From positions 1 to 52,934 of the IMG/VR virus record IMGVR_UViG_3300028586_000799: DNA of 52,934 nucleotides. The stretch is one strand, 5' to 3'. The notes beneath the pieces are model-generated. The model made no database searches. It had not been told where the DNA came from and saw only the letters and a program-made list of their open reading frames with translations. A program made the position numbers and the translations under genes. Below are positions 12,239-51,555 of this stretch, piece after piece. The stretch is from a virus (taxonomy: Duplodnaviria > Caudoviricetes). Position 1 is the first letter of the stretch. Each line of letters starts with the position of its first letter.

Positions 12239-12604
12239 ATGAGCAACAGTGAGAAAATTAATGTCTACGTGTACACCGGTTTACCCGATGAAAAGAAGGA
12301 TGAGTTTGTTGCTCGTGTTAAAGAAACTGACCCTGAACTCATTATCTCTGTTGTCGGTGAAAAGCTTGGTATAGCTGTAGATCAGATTAAAAGCAATACT
12401 CGAAAGCGTGACGTAGTAGAAGCCAGGTTCATTGCGGTTTCCCTGATCATGATTGCAAATCCTGAGTTTACATTGAAGAAAGTAGGAGAAATATTTAACC
12501 GGGATCACTCCACCATTGTTTATGCCCGCGATTCATTTAACCATCTTATGAAAACGAACAAAGTCTTTAAGGATAAAGTCGCGTTGGTGAAGCAAAGGGT
12601 GTGA
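12239..12604 (+). CDS. Stand-alone DnaA C-terminal (domain IV)-like HTH protein
   Basis: RKRDVVEARFIA...TLKKVGEIFNRDHSTIVYA. Confidence 0.8.
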   Translation: MSNSEKINVYVYTGLPDEKKDEFVARVKETDPELIISVVGEKLGIAVDQIKSNTRKRDVVEARFIAVSLIMIANPEFTLKKVGEIFNRDHSTIVYARDSFNHLMKTNKVFKDKVALVKQRV

Positions 12605-19642: not shown

Positions 19643-19987
19643 ATGTTACACTCTTATCAAACCACCCAGCAACCCGCTCGAACAAGTGTTCGCAGCACAG
19701 TGCAAGGTCAAACACCAGAGAAGATTATTGAAGCAGTATGCGAGGCTTTAAAAGTCAAACGAGATGATCTGCTTGGACCGGAAAGATCGGGGCAGCTTAA
19801 AGTAGCCAGGCGAATAGCGATCGGGTTAATCCTGATGTCTGATCCAATGATCACCCTAAAAGAAGTGGGCCAGATGTTCGGCCGCAACCATACTACCATC
19901 ATCTACAACCGGGATCAGTTCTATGACCAGAACGGCACCGATCGGGAAATAACGGATAAAGTGAAGATGGTGACTTACCTGTTTTAA
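19643..19987 (+). CDS. Second DnaA C-terminal-like HTH protein
   Basis: ARRIAIGLI...TLKEVGQMFGRNHTTIIY; paralog of 12239..12604. Confidence 0.8.
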   Translation: MLHSYQTTQQPARTSVRSTVQGQTPEKIIEAVCEALKVKRDDLLGPERSGQLKVARRIAIGLILMSDPMITLKEVGQMFGRNHTTIIYNRDQFYDQNGTDREITDKVKMVTYLF

Positions 19988-39700: not shown

Positions 39701-40709
39701 CAAGCAAACAGAAGCGATTAACAAAGCACTGGAACGACAGGTCGCATTGATTAACGATGCTTATGGTACAGATCGGTTGGTCAAGTACCGAGAGGCGCAA
39801 GAGCAAATACGCAAAGATGAGGAGCTGTATCAAAAGCAATTAGCCAATCGGTATGCACTTACGGGGAATAAGGTGCTTGACGATGCGATCACCAGATACA
39901 ATACGACTGGAAATAAAGACTACTTAGGGGTTGTTAAAAATCTTGGGGATCTGGATAAATTTAAGTTGCCATCTGGACTAGCCGACCTGGAACGTCTGGC
40001 GGACGAAGGCAAACTTGATGAGGGTACTTCAAAAATTGTAGAGAACCTCATCAATGCTGAAAAGGCAGCAAAGGACCTCGCGAATCAACTCAAAGCCGAC
40101 ACAATAGGTTCATCGCTTGACAGCATTGCTGACGACTTTATAGGTGCTCTTACTGATGGCACACAGGACTTTGGTAAAACCTTCGAGGACACTATACGCA
40201 CATCTATTCTGAACGGCTTCAAGGGCGAGTTGATTAAAAATCAGCTACAGCGCTTCTATGATGACTATGCAATTGCCGCTCAGGATGGTAATCTAACAAC
40301 AGAGGAAATCGCCGCGCTTCGAAAAACATACATTGACGCTAGCGAAAAATCCAAGAAAGACCTAGAGAACCTTGAAAAGCTGACCGGTATTGATCTGACA
40401 GGTAAACCTGAGGAAAGCAACAAATCAACAGGTGGTTTAAAGTCTTCTGGCATTACGGCTTCTCAAGAATCTGTTGACGTAAATAATGCCATTGCTCGAA
40501 GTAACTACGAACAACTTAAGAGCATCGGGTTAACGGCTCTTGATCACCTTCAAGTTGCAAGACAAGGCATAGACAGCCTTCGTAATATTGAGCAACACAC
40601 ATTTAATACGGTAAATGAACTGAAGGCCTCGAATGAAAGTCTAAAAGCAATTGTGACTAACACCAAACCTGCACCGAAAAGTCAGGGATGGCAAGCTGTG
40701 GGGGGATAA
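36783..40709 (+). CDS. Tape measure protein
   Basis: 1308 aa; tape-measure N-domain (TPFTLNDV..AKQLLAYG, QFAGRGIPIYDELAK), helical repeats. Confidence 0.95.
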   Translation: MNVNGGPLDFVAALDNSQFGAAMREMRNDVSRLTGDLQTQGAQIESFASKAAAAAAGFFSTQAAAGFVKQMVQVRGEFQQIEIAFNTMLGSKEKADQLMAEAVKLAAITPFTLNDVAKGAKQLLAYGFAAGDITQELTKLGNVAAGVGSQLGDIVYLYGTMKAGGRVTQVDLNQFAGRGIPIYDELAKVIGKTTGEVRAYVSAGKIGFPEVEKAFGNMTGQGGKFFNLMQEQSKSLTGQLANLGDAWDMMLNSLGKSQEGIIGDGIQAAIELVENYQKVIDIIGILIISYGVYRASLIVTAVNQRIVAEGQLQMALSGNTLAASQLRAVGATTFLNQALVRIRTTLMSFAAATAPIAVITAFIAVGYALVQYQDAAEIAENSLTEAKEKGARALDNETEKINGLLKTIKDHNVSKREQKAAYDELLQTTQGALDKYSQEEIAAGKGAEAIDKYKESVRKATETNQQFADYKGLQEQIDAINEKGIKALNTFDRLAISIKRTFAPTSQGMSMGQWWDELISGKAAKKGIIDSQLKELKGAQDLLLKGNPDVAKLVNTKTTAEPPKTTPPVTPPKTPEELAKEAAAAKKYNALLEKRKDLEREISQDLAGARASALSEEDKQVAAINAKYDDRLAQLDKINAKLNPEDQSKAKVQVESARNVELGVNGIDTIINGKGGYKEELERKKQLFEEYEQARVDFGETKARELYRNEIGAYKNFLDYLNNDINSRKGDNTLLATKKNQVAAPMVIESQEEARKRYNGLLKEFMSYNDQRQAAIERYQADTALLEEKGVDTSTRITKYKEEIDALNDQIVRSLPEFKALFDGIDQLSDDNANNIVDAVKAKLATTNMSKELRSEIEKLLKNTSLAIADRMPDRIINLANSIDQVTSAVSEVDETFGKLLSTVGNVVGQVGNIKKGMIDLKASQGSGDTLGQLSAGLGIFGAGVSIFSSITKLFDNSAKREEQAAYSRDLQNKQTEAINKALERQVALINDAYGTDRLVKYREAQEQIRKDEELYQKQLANRYALTGNKVLDDAITRYNTTGNKDYLGVVKNLGDLDKFKLPSGLADLERLADEGKLDEGTSKIVENLINAEKAAKDLANQLKADTIGSSLDSIADDFIGALTDGTQDFGKTFEDTIRTSILNGFKGELIKNQLQRFYDDYAIAAQDGNLTTEEIAALRKTYIDASEKSKKDLENLEKLTGIDLTGKPEESNKSTGGLKSSGITASQESVDVNNAIARSNYEQLKSIGLTALDHLQVARQGIDSLRNIEQHTFNTVNELKASNESLKAIVTNTKPAPKSQGWQAVGG

Positions 40710-41632
40710 TGGAGAACGTATATTTTTTAAACGGTCAGAATATGCAAGACCAGTTCGGGATCATCCCGGCAAAGGCACCTAGTAGCAATATTGCGCTTGA
40801 AGGTGCTTGGGACATGCCTGCGCGTATTGGTAAAACGCACCATATCTGGCATGATGACAACAGCCTTGAACCTTATCTGCGTGCAGACGAGATATTCTTT
40901 GGCGGTCGGGACTTGTCCTTTCACTTCTTTGTAAAGGCAGCAGATAGGCGCACGGCAGTACTAAAGTTATATAAAATGTACGACTTCATTAATTCATTCA
41001 CTGGCCCGGCTCCCTTCAGTTCGATCAACTTCGGGTCCTATGATGTGGTTGTAAACAACGAAATCAAGATCGACTACATAGGATCAGGCATGTGCAAGGG
41101 CGTACTTACCATGCGTGAACCAGTGGTTAACATGAATGGCGGTATACCGCCAGCAGATGGTGATGGTGCTTCTTCCATCGACAAGATTAGTCTTTCCACT
41201 TTAGGGTGGGAGGTAGTATCAATGACCGATCAGTATGGCAGGCCAGCAGCAAAGTCAACCGAAGTCACTGCTTACGGATATGAAGGGGCAAAGGTTGCCA
41301 AGGTTGGGCACCGTACCATTAACCTGGAACTGGTTACTCAGAAGAACGGATACACTTTCGACTTCCTTCCTACAATAAAAACCTTGATGGCTTTGCTTGC
41401 TGCACCATATGCGCGCACACTGGCACATAACGGCATCACTCGGGAAGTATTTGCAAAAGATGGCTTTAAGGTAACCATGCTTTATAAGAACGGCGAACAA
41501 TACACAGCAAAGGTGATGATCCCTCTAACGGAGATCAGGGTGCTGGAGACATGGAATTTATTAACAGACAACCAGGGGAATACACTTACTGTAGGTGTAA
41601 TTCCCCTAACAGAAATATTAAAAATGAATTAA
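40709..41632 (+). CDS. Distal tail protein (Dit-like)
   Basis: Directly after tape measure, TAATG coupling. Confidence 0.65.
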   Translation: MENVYFLNGQNMQDQFGIIPAKAPSSNIALEGAWDMPARIGKTHHIWHDDNSLEPYLRADEIFFGGRDLSFHFFVKAADRRTAVLKLYKMYDFINSFTGPAPFSSINFGSYDVVVNNEIKIDYIGSGMCKGVLTMREPVVNMNGGIPPADGDGASSIDKISLSTLGWEVVSMTDQYGRPAAKSTEVTAYGYEGAKVAKVGHRTINLELVTQKNGYTFDFLPTIKTLMALLAAPYARTLAHNGITREVFAKDGFKVTMLYKNGEQYTAKVMIPLTEIRVLETWNLLTDNQGNTLTVGVIPLTEILKMN

Positions 41633-41830: not shown

Positions 41831-43621
41831 ATGACAGAGAAACATATAAGAAAAGAGTATTCAGATGGCAAGGTTGTATTGTCAAATGTTAGGGACAAAC
41901 GAAGTAATGAGACTTATTCATTAGTTAAAACCAATTTGTATTGCGATGGAACTGTCATGACCGCTGCGAAAGTAGATGGGGACATTTACCGTCGCTTTAA
42001 GGGCAGCAGTGAATATTTCGTGAGGGCAATGGATCTCACGAAATCCAGAACTTTAGCTGTGAATAACATACTTGAGCTTCGTTCTCTTTCTATAAAAAAC
42101 TTAATCCTTCTTAGGCTTGGATACTACAACAAAGTAGAAACTAAAGGATATTACACAGATGGGGATGGCGGTGGAACAGATTATGTCATCAACATAAATG
42201 CTTTCGGTGTAGATGACGGATTCCTTACAATAAAAGCCACCAATGGTTTGTGGGTTCAGTTTAATCCAGTTATAAGAGAAACCTTAAACGTCAAGATAGC
42301 GGGCGTAAAAGGTGACTTTATTAAAGACGATTCTGCTGACATTCAAAAGGTGTTTAATTCAATGAGAGACGGTGATGAGGTTCGATTTCCGAAATGCACC
42401 GGCTATAGATTGACTGTTCCAATTGTTCCTAAAAAGAAAAATATTAAAATGACAGGCGAGTTATGCAGACTGGCTTATGACAGAGATGTAGACGGAATTG
42501 TCTTTGATATGGCTAATATCAACAATGTAAACATATCTGGATTTACCAGCGATAATACAGTGACAGCCCAAACGTTTATAAGGGCAAACTCCTGCCACCA
42601 CCTTAATGTTAGCGTAGGCTATATTGACGGAACAAAGCTATTTCTTGATCTCACAAATTGCTACTGGCCATCAATTGAAAGAATTCAAATGCAAAGCGTG
42701 TACCAGGCATTTCAGTTTAAAGGTGGTACAAATTCATTCAACCTAATCAGCGTGTCTGTTGCCGGGAATGGAATTAGGTCAACAATAGATAATACTATTG
42801 GGGGTAACATTTCAAATGGATGTTCTTTCGAGGGTAAAAGTGGCCGAATGGTTTTTACTAAGAGCCGAGGTGTAAACATCACTGGTAACTACTTTGAGGG
42901 TTACAATGAAGCCGAGATCACTAATTACATTGAAATTGGGGCGGGCAATTATAAGGACTGCGGAGGTTTTAACATTGGTGGCAACTTGTTTTATGCAGGG
43001 GCTGAACACGCTGTCACATTGAGGAACGTAGAGGGAATTACCATTCAGGGCAATTTTATTGGAACAAAACACGCTTTGGATTTATACACGTTCGACGAGA
43101 GTAACCAGAATAATATTCAGTACGGCCCCAACGATTTTAGAGGTACAGGCGATGAGTTTCATATTCGGGGAACTGTTGGACAAGCATCCGTAAGCCCTGA
43201 ATACAATATGCCGATTACGTTTTTACCAACCTTAATTCAGCCTAAGACTGGGCAACTTGCAAACTCTTTGTTTACTGATTCTAAGGGACGCTTTATGCGG
43301 AATTACAATAGTCAAAATTCTGCATTAATCTCTAATGTGTATTTCTTTAATGAAGCCTTTTTGCCGGGCGCAACTAAAACAGTTCCCATAAATATAGGCC
43401 AGTTTGCCGACACCGGGTTTATCACTGTTAACACTGTGCTTAGTGCTAAATGTGCGGTTTATGTTTACGTCAGAAACACCAACAATTCTAATGGAGAAAT
43501 CTATCTGAAACAGATTTTTAACGACCTAGATGTAGTGTTAACCTCCACCGCCTTCAATACTCTTACGTTGAAGAATAATCTAGCAACTAATCAGGTGTTG
43601 GAGCTAAATCTAAAGGGGTGA
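41831..43621 (+). CDS. Tailspike / depolymerase with right-handed beta-helix (pectate-lyase-like)
   Basis: TKGYYTDGDGGG, NVKIAGVKGD..DDSADIQK, repeated I.GN.F rungs. Confidence 0.75.
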   Translation: MTEKHIRKEYSDGKVVLSNVRDKRSNETYSLVKTNLYCDGTVMTAAKVDGDIYRRFKGSSEYFVRAMDLTKSRTLAVNNILELRSLSIKNLILLRLGYYNKVETKGYYTDGDGGGTDYVININAFGVDDGFLTIKATNGLWVQFNPVIRETLNVKIAGVKGDFIKDDSADIQKVFNSMRDGDEVRFPKCTGYRLTVPIVPKKKNIKMTGELCRLAYDRDVDGIVFDMANINNVNISGFTSDNTVTAQTFIRANSCHHLNVSVGYIDGTKLFLDLTNCYWPSIERIQMQSVYQAFQFKGGTNSFNLISVSVAGNGIRSTIDNTIGGNISNGCSFEGKSGRMVFTKSRGVNITGNYFEGYNEAEITNYIEIGAGNYKDCGGFNIGGNLFYAGAEHAVTLRNVEGITIQGNFIGTKHALDLYTFDESNQNNIQYGPNDFRGTGDEFHIRGTVGQASVSPEYNMPITFLPTLIQPKTGQLANSLFTDSKGRFMRNYNSQNSALISNVYFFNEAFLPGATKTVPINIGQFADTGFITVNTVLSAKCAVYVYVRNTNNSNGEIYLKQIFNDLDVVLTSTAFNTLTLKNNLATNQVLELNLKG

Positions 43622-46600
43622 TGCAGAAAGTTTTACAGATATACCGCAACGAGCAGCCGCACCTGTTGGTCAACATCGATGAGGAAACTTTCTTCTCGCA
43701 GGTTGTCATGGGCGAGCACATTGTATCTAGTAGATTTATCTCAGATGGGCCGCTGGATATTGATGAAGGCGACTATGTAATCTTTGGCGGCGAAAGGTTC
43801 AGCATCAATAAAACACTTCCACCAGTTACCAAGTCCGCAATTAACGAGCTGTCTTATAATCTTCAATTCCAAGGCTACATTTACGACCTTCACTATTGCG
43901 CATACCGGCACTTAGGATCTTCAGAGTTTGAACTGTTCGCCACCGCTGATGTGTTCATCGGGATAATGGTTGGCTGTCTGAATAACATCTACACAGGTTG
44001 GTCCGTTGGCCAAATTGACGTAACCGAACCTAAGCTGATCCAGTTCTTTGAGAATGGAAAGGGCTTCTCCTGTAAAGGCGCAATCATAAAAATCGCTGAA
44101 GCATTCGGACTTGAATTCTGGTTAACAGGTAAGACACTCAACTTAACTGCTCAGGCTGGCGTAGACACCAACATCACCTTTGAATACGGTAGAGGAAGAG
44201 GATTATACGAGATTGTCCGGGGTGAAATCGACAACGAGCTTTATTTCAATCGTCTTTATGTAGAAGGATCAACCAGGAATATCCCGGTTGGTTATAGAGG
44301 CGGCATGAAGCGCCTGCAAATTGATGTTCCATATCTGCAGCTTGACATTCCAGCCGGTAAGCGGATCCGGGAAACCTCCGTTGTTATAGAAGAGATTTTC
44401 CCGAAACGTGTAGGCACCATCTCTGCTGTAAGTGCCGACGGGTTAAACATTACTGATACTTCAATTGACTTTGATCTGAATGGGCAGAAGATTGAAGGGG
44501 AAAAGGCTACAGTGGAGATGCTCACTGGTGAAAACTCTGGGCAATCTTTTGAGATTGACAAGTATAATCATACCAGTAAGACCATCATTCTGGTCCCAAA
44601 TACAGAAACCACCGGCAATGTACGGCCGAATGCTGCTTTCGAGATCAAACCTGGTGATCAGTACTTCTTTGCAGGGATAAAGGTTCCAGAAACCTACATA
44701 GCAGCCGCTGAAGCTGAACTCAAATTAAAGGGCATTGAATTGCTTAAGAAAGCCACGGCTTACGTGCCTCCGTATTCAGTTCGGGTGTCTGATAAATTCA
44801 TGCGGGACAATGGACTGAAAATCAATGCCGGTGATCGTGTAAGGCTCAAAGATGCTGCACTTGGCATTGATGTTAAGATCAGGGTGTCAGCTGTTAAATT
44901 CTCATTGGTTGATCCTTATACAGTGGAGCTGCTGATCAGCGATGTCATTCCATATGCATCTGAGGATAAAAACATCATCGAGATCGGCAATGCTAAGAAA
45001 GAAACAGTTGTAGTCAATAAGGTCAATGCGGAAAAGGCTCGCAGGAATATGCTCGATATCCGCAGACTTCAGCAGAATGTCTTTGATCCGGATGGATACT
45101 TTGATGGAACCAATATACGTCCGAACAGCATTGAAACGCTAATGCTTTCTGTTGGCGCCAAGTCTCAGAACTTTGGCTTGAATGGCGTTTCCATCAATGC
45201 AAACACAGGTGGCGATCCGAACTTTGTGACGGTATCTCAAGGAGCTTTAATACACTACGAAATTCAGATTGAAGGTTTAGGTTACGTCTGGCAGATGAGT
45301 GCCGTAGAGTTTCCGGCACTTGACCCTGCTAAAACTTACTTCCTTTCTGCCAAATGCAGAACAACCGCACTTACAGGGGAATGGGTATTATCTGAAACTC
45401 CTATCAAGACTGAAGAAGAAACAGGTTACTACCATTTTTATGTAGGGCTTTTCTATCCAGTGACACAAGGATCACGTGGCTATGATCTTACTAACGGCAT
45501 GACCTTCATTGTAGGAGATCGAATTACTACCGGCCGTATCCAGTCGCTTGACGGATTATCCTTCCTTTACCTTAGCCAAAATAAGTTCAATGTTGGTGAC
45601 CTTCTCACAGGCCTAGACTGGGATGTGACCAATGCAGGACAGCTTACTATCCGCGGAAACATCGTAGCAAATAACGCATCATTCATTGGATTGATCGTTC
45701 AGAACCTGGTCGCAGGCAAGGTGCGCATCACGGCTGCCGCGAACAATATCAGGATGGTGGATACGGCGAGAGATAAAATCATAATGCTGCTGGATGACGA
45801 TAGTGCATTGGAGGGCTCTTACTGGTCTACAGATAAAACAGTGGACAACCCAGATGGAACGCCCGATCCCAACCTTTTAGGCACGCAAATCAGACAGGAA
45901 AACGGTGCTGATGTAACTTATTACAAGTATGCTAAGCGCGGCGTAGGTGCTACTTTTGGCACGCCAGGAGAGGCTACAACCGCCATCGGCCGGGCTGGTA
46001 TATTCTCAACGGATAATAATGGTATAATACATATGCAGCGAAAGCTTGACCTTACAACAGGTCGAGGCTACATCAGGGATAACGTGTACAACGGTCTTAT
46101 TTATGAATCCTTGATCAACAAAACATCTGGGCTCAGGATGTCTGCACAGTTTAAGATTCAGACCATTGGAGGCATCAACTACGTGGTTGCTGATGAAGTG
46201 CAGACAGAAGTTGAGCGCATGTATAACCCGAACGTGATCGCTGATGCTGGTGATAATGGTAACTCCGGAGGTGGTGGCGGTGGCGTAATACTTGAGCCAA
46301 CTGATCCAACTCCTACAAATCCAACCACGCTAAAAGCGAAGTTCCCCTACAACGTGGGTGTGGCATTTAAAGACGCCCTGCTTAACGACACCCAATACGG
46401 CGGCATTGTAAAAACTGAGTTTGATCAGATGACTCCTGAAAACGGCTGTAAGTTTGGCAAGATCAGGCCGAATCGGGCAACGTTCAACTTCAACGAGCTT
46501 AATGATAATTTCAACTGGGCAAAAGCAAACGGCCTGAAAGTCCACTTGCATTACCTGCTTCCAGGCGGCGATGATAAAACGATCCAATGGTTCCTTGACA

Positions 46601-47370
46601 TGGAATCACTACCAAATGCTGCAGTAGAGGTTGAAGCAGAAATCAGACTTCACATCAAGACTGTACTTCAACACGTAATGGTTGGTACTTATGCCGGCAT
46701 GGTGGTTTCTATCGATATCGTAAACGAATGTCTAACTGGCGGAGGGAACGTCAAGGACAGCATGCTTAAGCGCCTATTTGGTGAGCAGTACATCGACATT
46801 GTTATTGACGAGTGCCAGAAGTGGGCGCCAAATATACCGAGGCTGCTTAATGACTTCGACTTTGAATATAGCACTAGTAAGGTTCAAGGGGTAATCGCGC
46901 TTCGTGACAGGATAGCTTCTCGTGGCTACACTTTAGATGGTATCGGCTCACAGATGCACAGTGTGTTGCGCATGATGACTGAGACACCTACAAGTCTGAA
47001 TGAGTTTAGAAGCCGAATTCAACTGATTGCCGATTCCGGCATGATGCTGCACATCTCTGAACTCGATGTTAGATGCAGAAGGGGAACGGATGGCGTGTCT
47101 TTAGGTCCTTATCCATTTATGACACCAGAATTGGAGGCGGCACAAGCAAACTTCTTTGTGCAGGTTCATAAAGCACCATGGGAGATCATGCCTCAGGGCA
47201 AACTACTTGCGGTGACTGTCTGGTCGCTTGATGACAACTCCAACTTCGAGAACATTCCGACCATGACCGACTACACGTCTATATGGTACCTGGAGAATGG
47301 CATATACAAGAAAAGGCTTGCTCACCAGGCGCTGATGAACATGGAAATAGGAACGGAATTAGAACTTTAG
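43618..47370 (+). CDS. Tail-tip / baseplate hub protein with C-terminal GH10 glycosidase domain
   Basis: N-terminal prophage-tail-like region (FEYGRGRGL, NRLYVEGSTRNIP, GDRVRLKD); Gly/Pro-Thr linker; then TPENGCK, DIVNE, NDFDFE, GIGSQMH, ISELD. Confidence 0.85.
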   Translation: MMQKVLQIYRNEQPHLLVNIDEETFFSQVVMGEHIVSSRFISDGPLDIDEGDYVIFGGERFSINKTLPPVTKSAINELSYNLQFQGYIYDLHYCAYRHLGSSEFELFATADVFIGIMVGCLNNIYTGWSVGQIDVTEPKLIQFFENGKGFSCKGAIIKIAEAFGLEFWLTGKTLNLTAQAGVDTNITFEYGRGRGLYEIVRGEIDNELYFNRLYVEGSTRNIPVGYRGGMKRLQIDVPYLQLDIPAGKRIRETSVVIEEIFPKRVGTISAVSADGLNITDTSIDFDLNGQKIEGEKATVEMLTGENSGQSFEIDKYNHTSKTIILVPNTETTGNVRPNAAFEIKPGDQYFFAGIKVPETYIAAAEAELKLKGIELLKKATAYVPPYSVRVSDKFMRDNGLKINAGDRVRLKDAALGIDVKIRVSAVKFSLVDPYTVELLISDVIPYASEDKNIIEIGNAKKETVVVNKVNAEKARRNMLDIRRLQQNVFDPDGYFDGTNIRPNSIETLMLSVGAKSQNFGLNGVSINANTGGDPNFVTVSQGALIHYEIQIEGLGYVWQMSAVEFPALDPAKTYFLSAKCRTTALTGEWVLSETPIKTEEETGYYHFYVGLFYPVTQGSRGYDLTNGMTFIVGDRITTGRIQSLDGLSFLYLSQNKFNVGDLLTGLDWDVTNAGQLTIRGNIVANNASFIGLIVQNLVAGKVRITAAANNIRMVDTARDKIIMLLDDDSALEGSYWSTDKTVDNPDGTPDPNLLGTQIRQENGADVTYYKYAKRGVGATFGTPGEATTAIGRAGIFSTDNNGIIHMQRKLDLTTGRGYIRDNVYNGLIYESLINKTSGLRMSAQFKIQTIGGINYVVADEVQTEVERMYNPNVIADAGDNGNSGGGGGGVILEPTDPTPTNPTTLKAKFPYNVGVAFKDALLNDTQYGGIVKTEFDQMTPENGCKFGKIRPNRATFNFNELNDNFNWAKANGLKVHLHYLLPGGDDKTIQWFLDMESLPNAAVEVEAEIRLHIKTVLQHVMVGTYAGMVVSIDIVNECLTGGGNVKDSMLKRLFGEQYIDIVIDECQKWAPNIPRLLNDFDFEYSTSKVQGVIALRDRIASRGYTLDGIGSQMHSVLRMMTETPTSLNEFRSRIQLIADSGMMLHISELDVRCRRGTDGVSLGPYPFMTPELEAAQANFFVQVHKAPWEIMPQGKLLAVTVWSLDDNSNFENIPTMTDYTSIWYLENGIYKKRLAHQALMNMEIGTELEL

Positions 47371-47380
47371 TCAACACAAT

Positions 47381-48736
47381 ATGAAAAACCTATGTAATTA
47401 CATTTTAGCACTGATGCTTGCTGTCAGCTTCAGCCAGTGCACGCCATCTGGCAACAATTCCAGTACCCAGCCGATTGATACGGCTACTATTCTCGAACCA
47501 CCTGTCTACGTGCAGCCGATGCCAGAACCGGAGCCGCCGATCATGGTTGAGCCTTCGCCTGATCCACCAAAAGAAGTTGAAGTGCCTGCACCTGATGTTC
47601 CCGACACCAATGTCGGAGAGATACCGGAGCCGCCAAAGCAAGAACCCGTAAAGCCTGAACCGGTGATTGAGGTTAAACCTACGCCGGTACCAGTGGAAGT
47701 ACCTAAGCCGGTTGAAATACCTAAGCCTGTAGAAACCAAACCGGATCCTGTAGTCGTTCCAGCACCAAAGCCTGATCCTAAGCCACAACCTCCAGTAGCT
47801 AAAACCTTAAAAGATTCTCCGATCACCTGGGGTGTAGCGTTCAAGGAAAGTGACCTGAACAAGCAAAAGGTCATTGATGAGACGTACAAGCACTTCAGGT
47901 CTGTAACAGCCGAGAACGGAATGAAGGCTGGTAAGGTGCAAAAGAAAGAGGGTGTATTTGATTTTAAGGAAGGCAAAGCACTTGTAAAGATTGCCAAAGC
48001 AAAGAACTTACGTGTTCATGCACACGCCTGCTTCATCTGGCCTTCGCAAGAAAAGAACCAACCCGAACTCCGGCATGAAGCAGCGAAGGACAGAAACAAG
48101 TACATCGCTCTACTCAAGAATACCGTACAGACCTACGTCCGCACCTTCAAGGGTGACATTACCGGCATAGACATTATCAATGAAGCATACGAGAACAACG
48201 GAAAGCTTAGGCCTTGCTACGCTTTAACCCACATGGGTGAAAATTACCCTGAGCAGATTGCAAAGTGGGTGAAGGAGGTTGATACTGAAGTTAAAATCTT
48301 CATAAGCGACTACGACTTTGAAACGCTAAGCCATAAGGCAACGGTTGTAATCAAGTATGCTGGTGATCTTAGAAAGAAGGGCCTGGTTGATGGGATTAGC
48401 TCTCAGATGCATACTGGCATGGGTATGAGCTATAAGGACTTTAAAAAGCGTCTTGATGAAATGGCTAAGCAAAACCTGCTTGTTCATATTTCAGAACTCG
48501 ACATTAAAGCTAAGGTTACGGTACCTGAAGCAGACCGGGCCGCGAAGTTCAAGGAGATTGCATCAGGTTTCCGTACACTACCAGCACCCCTCCAATACGG
48601 CATCACCGTTTGGTCGCATATCCATGAAGGTAATTTCCTAAATTACAAGAAAGATCCGGCAGCGTATGCACCGGTGATTTTTAATAAGCAATACGATGGT
48701 GGACTTGTACTTGACGCGATACTGCAGGTGAAGTAG
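47381..48736 (+). CDS. Putative lipoprotein: Pro-rich stalk plus GH10 glycosidase domain
   Basis: Signal peptide ending FSQ-C; ~100 aa P/E/V/K-rich; TAENGMK, DIINE, SDYDFE, GISSQMH, ISELD, ITVW. Confidence 0.85.
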   Translation: MKNLCNYILALMLAVSFSQCTPSGNNSSTQPIDTATILEPPVYVQPMPEPEPPIMVEPSPDPPKEVEVPAPDVPDTNVGEIPEPPKQEPVKPEPVIEVKPTPVPVEVPKPVEIPKPVETKPDPVVVPAPKPDPKPQPPVAKTLKDSPITWGVAFKESDLNKQKVIDETYKHFRSVTAENGMKAGKVQKKEGVFDFKEGKALVKIAKAKNLRVHAHACFIWPSQEKNQPELRHEAAKDRNKYIALLKNTVQTYVRTFKGDITGIDIINEAYENNGKLRPCYALTHMGENYPEQIAKWVKEVDTEVKIFISDYDFETLSHKATVVIKYAGDLRKKGLVDGISSQMHTGMGMSYKDFKKRLDEMAKQNLLVHISELDIKAKVTVPEADRAAKFKEIASGFRTLPAPLQYGITVWSHIHEGNFLNYKKDPAAYAPVIFNKQYDGGLVLDAILQVK

Positions 48737-48791: not shown

Positions 48792-48858
48792 AATGCCTTA
48801 CGTTTTCGGATTCGTAAAGGATTAAAATCCAGTGCCCTTCAGCTGGGCGGTAAATTTG
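48792..48858 (+). promoter_or_regulatory. Late-promoter palindrome copy 2 plus -7 box (lysis operon)
   Basis: AATGCCTTACG-N10-CGTAAAGGATT, then TAAATTTG at 48851. Confidence 0.65.
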
Positions 48859-48876
48859 TACATCAAGATTAGGTGT

Positions 48877-49464
48877 ATGGCAAATTTTAAGATTGCAGAG
48901 ATTTTAACGGGAATAAATGAAGGCGGATATGCGAACAACCCTGCTGATCGAGGCGGTGAAACCTTCGCCGGCATCGCTCGAAAGTTTTGGCCTAAATGGG
49001 AGGGATGGAAGAAGATCGACGCATATAAAGCCGAATATCCAAAGCTAAGCCCTGCATTAAAGAAGCGTTTCACATTAGCCAAATGGATAAACAGTTCAGC
49101 GAAGGTTCCATCTGAAGGTGTTACCCAGATGATATCCGATTTTTACCGAGTAGAGTTTTGGCTAGCAAACAAGCTTGATCAGATACGTGATCAGCAGTTA
49201 GCCAACACCATATATGATTTCGGTGTAAACTCAGGTAAAGGCCGTGCGGTACAGTTTCTTGAGCAAATCTTCGGAGTTAAGAAGGACGGTATTATGGATC
49301 CTGTTGTGATTGCCCTTGCCAACAAGGCCAACGCGAAGACTATCTATAATAAATACAATGCTGCTCGTGAAGCAGCTTACAGGTCCTGGGCTGTCGGTGA
49401 TCAGGCGCAGTTCCTTAGATCATGGCTAAGCAGGTTAGAACCATATATTGAAAATGCAGCATAG
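48877..49464 (+). CDS. Endolysin, glycoside hydrolase family 108
   Basis: EGGYANNPADRGGETFAGI, YDFGVNSG, FLRSWLSR; start at MANFK. Confidence 0.9.
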   Translation: MANFKIAEILTGINEGGYANNPADRGGETFAGIARKFWPKWEGWKKIDAYKAEYPKLSPALKKRFTLAKWINSSAKVPSEGVTQMISDFYRVEFWLANKLDQIRDQQLANTIYDFGVNSGKGRAVQFLEQIFGVKKDGIMDPVVIALANKANAKTIYNKYNAAREAAYRSWAVGDQAQFLRSWLSRLEPYIENAA

Positions 49465-50594: not shown

Positions 50595-50837
50595 ATGTTA
50601 TTTGCCGACAAGCACAAATTTAAAGTAGGTGACAGGGTCATCGAAAAACATAGAAATGGACTAGGAAACATTGCTCAAGGAATTGTAGTAAGAGAGATCC
50701 TATTAAATTATGATGATGGAACATATCTGTGGTGTTATACTGATGTTGAAAAGACATCTTCGAACGTTTTCGATTCTAAAAACTCATCTGATCCGTTTCT
50801 GAGCAAATGGAAGCTCAAAAAAACTAACCCAAGCTAA
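50595..50837 (+). CDS. Small SH3-like hypothetical protein
   Basis: KFKVGDRV motif, 80 aa. Confidence 0.45.
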   Translation: MLFADKHKFKVGDRVIEKHRNGLGNIAQGIVVREILLNYDDGTYLWCYTDVEKTSSNVFDSKNSSDPFLSKWKLKKTNPS

Positions 50838-51555
50838 AACCAATATGTCCATTTCTAATTGTGCTCCCAGAAAAGGATATTCCATTTGCGGTAAAGGTAT
50901 CTTTAGTCCCACTTAAATTCCAACCTTGGTAGTACATTTGGAGCCTCTCTACTATGATGCCATGAGGTGGAACTGCTCGCAAAGCCAAACATATTCTACT
51001 AGCTCGTTCTCTAATTGTAATAAGTGGTCCAGTCACTTCGACGTCCCAGTTGCTATTGAAAGCTTTCCATTCATTTTTAATGATAAAGAGAGATTTTCCC
51101 CCAATGGAATCGTAAAACTGTCCACTTAATAAAAATTGAGTTCCAGGCTCCTCAGGTGGTTCAATAGTGAATAGCGCTTCATCTTTAATCATTATAGGAA
51201 TTTTCACTTCCTCCATTTTAATGCCACCAAAGTCAATAAACGGGGGTGTTCCCTCAAAGTCGAAATACTCACTTGAGTATCCAGCCTGCTTGCACTTTGG
51301 AAGTTCCATAGCCCGCCTAATTGTTGTAATAGACAACATGCCTCTAGTTTTCTTAGAATGGCATTGAGAGCACAAAAGTGTTATATTGGCGGGATCGTGA
51401 ACTTCAGCATCAACCCACAGTGGCTGCACGTGTTCATATTCGTATATACCTAATCCACATAATACACAGCCGAAGCCGCTATTTTGCCGGACTTGCCTTT
51501 TTGTTTCGGACGGGATTCTTCTTGAAAGACCAAATCGGTTTATCGCGTTGAGCAT
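50824..51555 (-). CDS. HNH endonuclease domain protein (moron)
   Basis: GCVLCG...YEHVQP...NITLLCSQCHSKKT plus beta-rich C-terminal domain. Confidence 0.8.
   Translation of the reverse strand: MLNAINRFGLSRRIPSETKRQVRQNSGFGCVLCGLGIYEYEHVQPLWVDAEVHDPANITLLCSQCHSKKTRGMLSITTIRRAMELPKCKQAGYSSEYFDFEGTPPFIDFGGIKMEEVKIPIMIKDEALFTIEPPEEPGTQFLLSGQFYDSIGGKSLFIIKNEWKAFNSNWDVEVTGPLITIRERASRICLALRAVPPHGIIVERLQMYYQGWNLSGTKDTFTANGISFSGSTIRNGHIGFSLG

Follow-up and report, generated by a model that had tools for sequence, protein, structure and literature searches.

A conserved pair of GH10 glycanase genes in proviruses assigned to Bacteroidota phages, and a candidate two-enzyme system for entry and release

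The window, by which we mean the whole 52,934-b stretch of DNA analysed here (IMG/VR provirus record IMGVR_UViG_3300028586_000799, estimated to be 93% complete), contains two adjacent genes whose products each end in a catalytic domain of glycoside hydrolase family 10 (GH10). The first product is, from its homologies and position, a distal tail protein; in the second, hereafter the stalked protein, the GH10 domain follows a short N-terminal helix and a proline-rich stalk. The sequence features that make up this pair are far beyond chance, and the pair recurs in all related loci that were compared. Whether a lineage of temperate, long-tailed Bacteroidota phages from decaying plant material keeps these genes as a two-enzyme GH10 system, with a virion depolymerase for entry and a late, off-virion, membrane-held glycanase directed at the same glycan class, is in our judgment evenly balanced. 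In such a system the first enzyme, a putative endo-beta-1,4-glycanase on the distal tail, would let the tail tip cut a layer of beta-1,4-xylan-type glycan around the host cell, be it a host-made polysaccharide or plant xylan in or on the surroundings of the cell. The second would be made late, from the gene that closes the late tail operon immediately ahead of the endolysin, and would remain outside the particle, held on the host membrane or its debris by its N-terminus. There, at and after lysis, it would clear the same class of glycan, destroying the receptor or opening up the matrix, and so keep progeny from being trapped.

The initial annotation of this DNA had reported a tail protein ending in a hexaglycine and Pro/Thr linker and a full GH10 domain, followed ten bases later by a second gene with a Pro-rich stalk and another GH10 domain, and both descriptions were borne out. 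The tail open reading frame (ORF; 43618-47370, plus strand) encodes 1250 amino acids (aa) from a GTG start (the public gene call, P0001, is one codon shorter, at 1249 aa), and matches Pfam family PF00331 over aa 905-1220 (E 2.3e-45, 155.6 bits, where the curated cut-off is 22.1 bits). The stalked ORF (47381-48736, plus strand; 451 aa) starts exactly 10 bases past the tail-gene stop and matches the same family over aa 143-447 (E 1.9e-45, 155.9 bits); a six-frame search reproduced both matches. In sequence searches, xylanases in the PDB were found at E values down to 4e-23 with the tail domain and 1.6e-26 with the stalked one. AlphaFold2 (AF2) gives each domain as a confident (beta/alpha)8 barrel of the TIM type, with a predicted local distance difference test (pLDDT) value of about 85-95 in the tail copy and above 90 across most of the stalked barrel, and the best PDB matches of the models in Foldseek are all GH10 xylanases (target template-modelling score 0.83-0.89 for the tail domain, 0.84-0.88 for the stalked one).

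The two glutamate motifs that had been noticed in both copies are in register with those of solved GH10 xylanases, N-E for the acid/base and S-E-L-D for the nucleophile. The alignment puts the acid/base of the tail copy at Glu1037 (nt 46726-46728) and its nucleophile at Glu1148 (nt 47059-47061), and those of the stalked copy at Glu268 (nt 48182-48184) and Glu372 (nt 48494-48496). Judged from the alignments and models, both domains are real and apparently active GH10 enzymes. A right-handed beta-helix is typical, not obligatory, for phage virion depolymerases; the catalytic module of the tail protein is a TIM barrel instead. A recent tandem duplication as the origin of the pair was considered and rejected, since the two domains share only 28% identity across 303 aligned columns and belong to separate clades of the GH10 tree described below.

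Placement of the 1250-aa protein at the tail tip, as had been proposed, is supported by family matches, by homology and by position. Over its first 650 or so residues the protein matches PHROG tail families, and PF06605 (Prophage_tail) scores 31.0 bits against a cut-off of 31.3; this body, which we call Tal-like after the tail-associated lysins (Tal) of siphophages, matches 69 phage records, and annotated tail proteins from phages of Bacteroides, Riemerella, Porphyromonas and Elizabethkingia are about 29% identical to it. The gene lies downstream of the tape measure gene, of a gene in the slot of the distal tail protein (Dit) and of a gene for a 596-aa protein, an order that recurs in named phages of Bacteroides and Porphyromonas. 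On the strength of the PHROG matches, the identity to annotated tail proteins and the position after the tape measure, the product of ORF 43618-47370 is assigned as a distal tail protein. Between its body and its barrel lies a region (aa 691-883) that AF2 predicts as beta strands with low to moderate confidence and that is common to database proteins P0002 and P0006 and to the related contig L008; a PDB sequence search with aa 660-903 gave a single, chance-level match (E 4.9). The linker that follows consists of a run of six glycines (aa 884-889) and a Pro/Thr stretch (aa 894-902), together nt 46267-46323.

The survey of related prophages for co-occurrence that the initial annotation had suggested found the pair in every case. 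The loci compared were the window, five IMG/VR proviruses (G001-G005; five of the 40 candidate stretches from pattern scans) and the metagenome contig L008, and they were compared by synteny and with a GH10 profile built in this analysis. At least two GH10 matches occur in each of the five proviruses, three of them in G002. In seven of seven loci the stalked gene comes directly after the Tal-like gene and before the endolysin and two conserved small lysis-region proteins, and a virion GH10 is likewise present in all seven. The latter forms the C-terminus of the Tal-like protein in five loci (the window, G001, G002, G004 and L008); in G003 and G005 it lies inside a protein of about 825 aa encoded between the Dit-slot gene and the Tal-like gene, and the GH10 profile finds no match in the Tal-like proteins of these two. 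The virion GH10 thus appears to be required and its carrier flexible. G002 and G004 keep the pair even though their structural proteins are 22-45% identical to those of the window. G002 also has a third GH10 gene about 1 kb upstream of its tape measure gene (L026:14919-17063, minus strand, 715 aa), whose product combines a very canonical N-terminal GH10 (E 1.6e-78) with about 400 residues without assignment and groups on the tree with the GH10s inside the G003 and G005 tail proteins.

No window-type tail GH10 was confirmed among the candidates from viral contigs (0 of 2 with the single protein, 0 of 117 with alignment A1), and a shorter protein search gave a single match, at 26% identity, among 1682 candidates. 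A scan of metagenome contigs for the tail GH10 confirmed 15 of 150 candidate stretches, of which only L008 is close (52%); the other 14 are ordinary GH10 genes, 22-32% identical. The stalked GH10 alignment confirmed 0 of 59 candidate stretches in GTDB species representatives, and an alignment of the capsid protein 0 of 126 in genome contigs. Among 5.8 billion proteins the stalked protein has 16 close relatives (53-88% identity), after which identity falls to 33% or less; the family alignment used below holds the window protein and 15 of these (n = 16), the partial P0014 being left out. In a further, exhaustive search with the stalked GH10, against 1.84 billion cluster representatives (3120 matches at E <= 0.001), the family is a single 50%-identity cluster (P0019, 468 bits), and the next match scores 192 bits.

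The active sites of the two partners have been kept to different degrees. Subsite residues were tabulated at 15 positions in 31 phage GH10 domains (18 stalked and 13 from large proteins), numbered as in Cex. Both catalytic glutamates are kept in all 31. In the stalked clade every one of the 18 domains has the canonical residue at each of the 15 positions; the large-protein domains have lost the glutamine Q87 in 13 of 13, and subsets of them are changed at W84 (the window type), at K47 and H80 (G003 and G005) or at D235. In the window the tail copy has Pro for W84 and Asp for Q87. Such alterations at the -1 and -2 subsites, found in all 13 large-protein domains, could suit a tail GH10 that is no polysaccharide depolymerase, only a lectin-like binding module or a tail lysin directed at the cell wall, and other siphophage Tal proteins do carry C-terminal cell-wall hydrolases. 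We find this scarcely credible: the E-N, Q-x-H and W273 positions are kept along with both glutamates in 13 of 13, the outer membrane of a Gram-negative host would be in the way, and to our knowledge no GH10 cuts peptidoglycan.

A matched pair acting on one receptor, as first proposed, is made less likely by the way in which the partners evolve. On a tree of 49 of 52 GH10 domains (three partial ones were dropped), the 18 stalked domains form one clade with short branches and a Shimodaira-Hasegawa-like approximate likelihood ratio test (SH-aLRT) support of 100, and the large-protein domains form several deep, long-branched lineages. Across the seven loci, pairwise identity is 54-85% (median 66) for the stalked GH10 and 21-95% (median 25) for the virion GH10, with no co-variation between the two (Spearman 0.16 over 21 non-independent pairs). 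G002 and G004 have virion modules that are 95% identical on Tal-like bodies that are 32% identical; in the window and L008, conversely, the bodies are 90% identical and the modules 32%. Modules of the window type (76-98% identical) also occur on database proteins whose N-terminal bodies barely align, and an aquatic sequencing run holds this module with 6 differences in 1091 b beside pieces that are about 10% diverged. By these comparisons the virion GH10 seems to behave as a module that faces the receptor, diversifies and can be swapped, and the stalked GH10 as a conserved housekeeping tool. Such unlike evolution speaks against two enzymes strictly matched to a single variable receptor.

Gene arrangement bears on when the stalked enzyme may be made. 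In the window the two genes have the same orientation, and no plus-strand terminator was found between 40.5 and 51.8 kb, from the tail to the lysis genes; together with the 10-bp gap, this points to late co-transcription of the stalked gene with the tail genes. The gap to the Tal-like gene is 3-23 bp in three other loci and 240-340 bp in G002, G004 and G005. Terminator-like hairpins flank the stalked gene of G005 (L007 9910-9923 and 11163-11189), the first of which ends about 12 nt before the ATG and could be a 5' regulatory stem-loop instead of a terminator; regulation of the stalked gene may differ between phages. Around the stalked genes of G002 and G004 no clear promoter or terminator signals were seen, in a scan that does not cover Bacteroidota promoters. 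The motif TAnnTTTG is not enriched in the window (43 copies found, 47.3 expected), and the copy ahead of the endolysin (48851-48858) is at most suggestive.

The stalk (aa 21-140) consists of 32% Pro, 16% Val and 17% Asp plus Glu. It is disordered in the AF2 model (pLDDT below 50 over most of its length), and its composition is kept across orthologues while its length and sequence vary. An Atlas search with the helix-plus-stalk module gave no usable match. Among the representatives, P0049 (822 aa) has an amphipathic N-terminal helix and Pro-rich stalk like those of the stalked family. Behind these come a domain of about 350 aa that looks beta-helix-like and matches no family, then another Pro-rich linker and, at 41% identity, a GH10. 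Judging by this layout, more than one enzyme can evidently be mounted on the helix and stalk.

Reading the N-terminus as a lipoprotein-like signal, as the initial annotation did, holds in part. The helix of the window protein (residues 2-17 in the AF2 model) is hydrophobic, with a maximum Kyte-Doolittle 15-residue mean of 1.89, and ends in S-F-S-Q-C at Cys20; the Cys is invariant in the seven signal-bearing orthologues. The residue at -1 of a lipobox is usually Gly, Ala or Ser, and here it is Gln in all seven Cys-bearing orthologues. Published work gives Leu-Ser-Ala-Cys as a typical lipobox (PMC5837995) and describes a "Q-rule" for signal peptidase I of Bacteroidetes, which cuts before Gln (PMC5837995, PMC10653852); a cut before Gln19 fits this rule about as well as the N-terminus fits a lipoprotein. 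Proteins that follow the Q-rule are encoded by Porphyromonas phages (PMC10367356). In the distant relative P0050 the N-terminus is clearly homologous and the lipobox canonical (I-G-G-C, with Gly at -1). Surface lipoproteins of Bacteroidota are described (PMC5080379) as carrying an acidic export signal at about +2 to +6 of the Cys (K-(D/E)2, Q-A-(D/E)2 or SDDDD); here no such signal occurs, positions +2 to +10 of Cys20 being free of acidic residues and an Asp at +14 being the first. Export of the window protein is probable, by a signal of the signal peptidase II or I type, and the lipoprotein reading is a weak one; a location on the cell surface is not predicted, because the acidic signal is absent.

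Comparison across the family suggests what such N-termini may have in common. Among the 16 aligned orthologues, seven have a hydrophobic helix with Gln-Cys, eight have a cationic amphipathic helix of 15-18 residues without Cys and one is truncated; in the seven loci, two have the Cys signal and five the amphipathic helix. Both types follow a common residue pattern, and they switch at least three times on the tree of the catalytic domain, with amphipathic helices in the basal lineages, G003 at the base included. Since a lipid or signal anchor and an amphipathic helix interchange in this way, membrane association suggests itself as their common function. An outer-membrane spanin (o-spanin) reading of the Cys and the Pro-rich N-terminus was rejected, five of the seven loci having no Cys.

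The N-terminus and the transcription context together bear on superinfection exclusion, which had been proposed as one role of the second enzyme: a cell-anchored GH10 would strip the glycan receptor of the phage from the surface of the lysogen and so exclude superinfecting phages. The gene does adjoin a receptor-recognising tail gene, which recalls the logic of T5 pb5/Llp, and the window protein has an export signal and a conserved Cys. This role is weakened by the position 10 bp behind the tail gene, which in the window leaves the stalked gene no promoter space of its own and, with no plus-strand terminator, points to late co-transcription. The lack of a surface-export signal, the half of the orthologues that are not exported and the lack of co-variation between stalked and virion GH10s also speak against it, and we regard it as very improbable.

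A different role would be that of an auxiliary metabolic or lysogenic-conversion xylanase, a Bacteroidota enzyme of xylan utilisation copied into the phage, by which an infected or lysogenic host gains more access to plant xylan; the initial annotation had also named an auxiliary carbohydrate-degrading enzyme as an option. Leaf litter and straw as habitat, the canonical xylanase subsites throughout the stalked clade, and the anchor-linker-GH10 layout shared with the cellular lipoprotein GH10s P0048 and P0055 (27-32% identity) all suit such a gene; the wider upstream gaps in G002, G004 and G005 could hold a promoter, and the G005 gene lies between hairpins as a moron would. In the window and three other loci, however, the gene is too tight behind the Tal-like gene for a promoter, the acidic surface-export signal past the Cys is missing, and the eight orthologues without an export signal would not reach xylan before lysis. 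A strict link to a virion GH10 in seven of seven loci would be needless for a purely metabolic gene, and the stalked family is found in no GTDB species representative. On this balance a metabolic role is quite unlikely.

Several points weigh against the two-enzyme system of entry and release set out at the beginning. All seven loci are of metagenomic origin, and since only three metagenome identifiers stand behind the five IMG/VR relatives, these are not fully independent. Substrate specificity of GH10 enzymes cannot be read from sequence, and the virion copies are altered at the -1 and -2 subsites; if both enzymes cut the same polymer, the strong diversification of one and the conservation of the other are left unexplained. 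Most orthologues appear to have no export signal, and their membrane tethering is deduced only from the amphipathicity of the helix. In G005 a strong second hairpin, with a 10-bp stem and a T-run, stands between the stalked gene and the endolysin, so that this gene cannot be counted simply as a member of the lysis cassette. By analogy, the place between the Tal-like gene and the lysis genes would be the usual siphophage slot for receptor-binding or fibre proteins, and in Klebsiella phages a short conserved N-terminal peptide is said to dock a second depolymerase.

The last of these points lead to a stalked GH10 that is itself part of the virion, docked to the baseplate by its N-terminal helix on a Pro-rich tether, so that the particle would carry two or three glycanases. 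Its gene closes the tail module in all seven loci, with gaps of 3-23 bp behind the Tal-like gene in four, and the G005 hairpin sets it apart from the endolysin. The helix pattern is common across the family, P0049 bears the same helix and stalk before a beta-helix-like-looking domain and then GH10, and named Bacteroidota phages have a "tail protein" of about 455 aa in a comparable slot. Those proteins, in Bacteroides phage Versailles and Porphyromonas phage005b, are nevertheless unrelated in sequence to the stalked GH10 (E 0.74 and 2.8). The export-type signal and Cys of the window protein and six other orthologues would take them out of the cytoplasm, where virions assemble, and are hard to reconcile with that assembly; known fibres do not resemble a monomeric enzyme on a disordered tether, and slow, conserved evolution is unlike that of receptor-binding proteins. 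A complex prediction of Tal aa 1-700 with aa 1-60 of the shorter protein scored 0.00, a result that, coming without controls, counts neither way. We consider a virion location of the stalked enzyme unlikely.

Habitat offers some guidance to the candidate substrate. In a run from a second leaf-litter study the whole 9.6-kb stretch is present with essentially no change, in a straw run there are several identical pieces of 151 b, and a bovine run has relatives 87-90% alike over the Tal-like gene and both GH10s; these settings are xylan-rich. Among the nearest cellular relatives of the stalked GH10 (27-36% identity) are proteins resembling lipoprotein xylanases of Bacteroidota. With decaying plant matter as the habitat, plant xylan has to be taken seriously as a substrate alongside a beta-1,4-glycan made by the host, a choice that sequence cannot decide. 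The host itself can be placed at the level of the phylum, in Bacteroidota, from tail and terminase homology to phages of Bacteroidota hosts and from signal features of the Bacteroidota type; terminase matches also include E. coli, Clostridium and Streptococcus phages. One further possibility, which we would call a long shot, is that the virion GH10 binds and cuts plant xylan captured on, or embedding, a xylan-degrading Bacteroidota host, so that xylan serves as primary bridging receptor and steers the phage to feeding cells, and that the stalked GH10 on membrane debris frees progeny as a neuraminidase does. Such a phage would be the first to rely, for both adsorption and release, on a polymer made by something other than its host.

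Comparison with known systems helps to define what is new in the arrangement. Tail-spike and tail-fibre depolymerases such as the P22 endorhamnosidase and the Klebsiella capsule depolymerases likewise place a glycan-cleaving enzyme on the distal tail and exchange the enzymatic module among otherwise different tail proteins, and this phage, too, has a beta-helix candidate. Those enzymes are trimeric beta-helices, whereas the virion enzyme here is a GH10 (beta/alpha)8 barrel joined by a Gly/Pro-Thr linker to the C-terminus of a Tal-like hub, and is always accompanied by a separately encoded second GH10. Siphophage Tal proteins of the lactococcal Tuc2009/TP901-1 type carry a C-terminal hydrolase. 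They share with the tail protein a conserved N-terminal hub body (here with the weak PF06605 match) and a variable C-terminal enzyme; theirs are peptidoglycan hydrolases or peptidases of Gram-positive phages, in contrast to a xylanase-family glycanase in a Gram-negative Bacteroidota setting.

The stalked protein is like, in layout, the surface lipoprotein GH10 xylanases of Bacteroidota xylan-utilisation loci (P0048 and P0055 look like such enzymes by their lipobox and acidic motif), which also join an anchor, a low-complexity linker and a GH10 domain. The phage enzyme differs in having no acidic export signal, a Gln at -1, a Cys-less amphipathic helix as anchor in half of the orthologues, a stalk that is a Pro/Val/Glu/Lys rod, and a gene in what is probably a phage late operon. 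T5 Llp is a small, early-made lipoprotein that blocks a protein receptor, and viral receptor-destroying enzymes neutralise the receptor and so spare progeny on debris. As with T5 pb5 and Llp, a gene beside a receptor-recognising tail gene would encode a membrane-anchored protein; here, by contrast, the partner is a 451-aa enzyme, probably late, that does not co-vary with the tail enzyme.

The initial annotation knew of no described GH10 pair, and full-text literature searches found neither a virion GH10 nor a GH10 pair, matches to the word "GH10" being mostly GH108 and the like. Among 50,697 GenBank phage records, GH10 searches matched only 3-4 unannotated fragments from gut metagenomes. Klebsiella phage papers do name "xylanases" as a class of depolymerase hydrolases (PMC6872550, PMC13123978). 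What sets the present system apart is the GH10 TIM barrel on a Tal-type protein, the conserved stalked second enzyme and its interchangeable N-terminal devices.

Phage depolymerases decide host range and serve as anti-biofilm tools, and almost all that have been characterised are beta-helix enzymes acting on host capsules; the receptors of Bacteroidota phages are poorly known. If the substrate proves to be a host glycan, the pair would add a new enzyme family and a two-enzyme logic of entry plus release to the biology of Bacteroidota phages. If it is plant xylan, the particles of phages from litter, straw and gut-type settings would bear true hemicellulases, which would have consequences for the movement of viruses through plant biomass, and "viral carbohydrate-active genes" in soil metagenomes should then be read as infection machinery and not as metabolism. 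The repeated swap of Cys signal and amphipathic helix on one enzyme is in either case a natural experiment in how phages deliver late enzymes.

Coordinates of the pair and of its neighbours are collected in Table 1. The window also encodes an SPP1-type portal, an HK97-like capsid protein and, at the right end, a tyrosine integrase, which together with the tape measure and the lysis region mark it as a temperate, long-tailed phage.

Table 1. Features of the distal tail and lysis regions of the window (positions in nucleotides of the 52,934-b stretch)
Feature	Position	Strand	Basis
Tape measure protein, 1308 aa	36783..40709	+	PF20155 TMP_3 E 8.9e-26; phrog_9959 tail length tape measure E 4e-164
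314-aa protein in the Dit slot	40688..41632	+	position only
596-aa candidate beta-helix (pectate-lyase-like) tail protein	41831..43621	+	Atlas feature score
Tal-like conserved body, aa 1-690	43618..45687	+	phrog_19846 E 3.5e-143
Beta-rich region, aa 691-883, then G6 and P/T linker, aa 884-902	45688..46323	+	AF2 model
Virion-borne GH10 module, aa 903-1250	46324..47370	+	PF00331, PDB xylanases, AF2 and Foldseek
N-terminal hydrophobic helix of the stalked protein, aa 1-20, ending Gln19-Cys20	47381..47440	+	hydropathy, AF2
Pro-rich stalk, aa 21-140 (about 120 aa)	47441..47800	+	composition
Stalked GH10 catalytic domain, aa 141-451	47801..48736	+	PF00331, PDB xylanases, AF2 and Foldseek
Endolysin (GH108)	48832..49464	+	PF05838 E 1.4e-18; phrog_315 endolysin E 4.6e-28
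Lysis-region protein, 113 aa	49448..49789	+	one hydrophobic segment and coiled-coil-like sequence
Lysis-region protein, 265 aa	49791..50588	+	N-terminal hydrophobic segment, coiled-coil-like, beta-rich C-terminus ending in Phe

The tape measure gene is the start of the distal tail module. The 314-aa protein behind it gave no match in Pfam or PHROG searches; it is 55-83% identical to its counterparts in G001, G003, G004 and G005, and in named Bacteroidota phages the gene in this slot is annotated as "distal tail protein". For the 596-aa protein, Pfam, PHROG and PDB sequence searches were all without a match. Its Atlas score of 0.95, with 180 features in common with viral PF12708 clusters, is a lead only; because Atlas puts it with viral pectate-lyase-like beta-helix tail proteins, the phage may carry a depolymerase of the conventional type beside the GH10. 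The same slot holds a 798-aa PF12708 beta-helix protein in G001 and the GH10-containing protein in G003 and G005.

In the lysis region, the likely true start of the endolysin is the ATG at 48877. The endolysin slot is occupied by GH108 in the window and G005 and by a PF11860 muramidase in G001, a non-orthologous replacement. Between the window (48832-49464) and G005 (L007 11232-11864) the GH108 endolysins are 94% identical and the adjoining genes 58-67%; this difference and the other endolysin family in G001 suggest that the endolysin cassette was exchanged recently. The 113-aa and 265-aa proteins are without a match in family searches (Pfam and PHROG), and they keep their order at 49-67% identity in G001, G002, G003 and G005; they are candidate holin or spanin-type lysis proteins of Bacteroidota phages.

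Two minor observations concern other parts of the window. Between the lysis region and the integrase lies an HNH-endonuclease-like gene (50824-51555, minus strand; phrog_6544, E 6e-80) that has no counterpart in the five related proviruses. Far upstream, the plus-strand ORFs 12239-12604 (121 aa) and 19643-19987 (114 aa) match the same ORFs of G002, G003 and G004 at 42-47% identity, and may for that reason be paralogues within the window.

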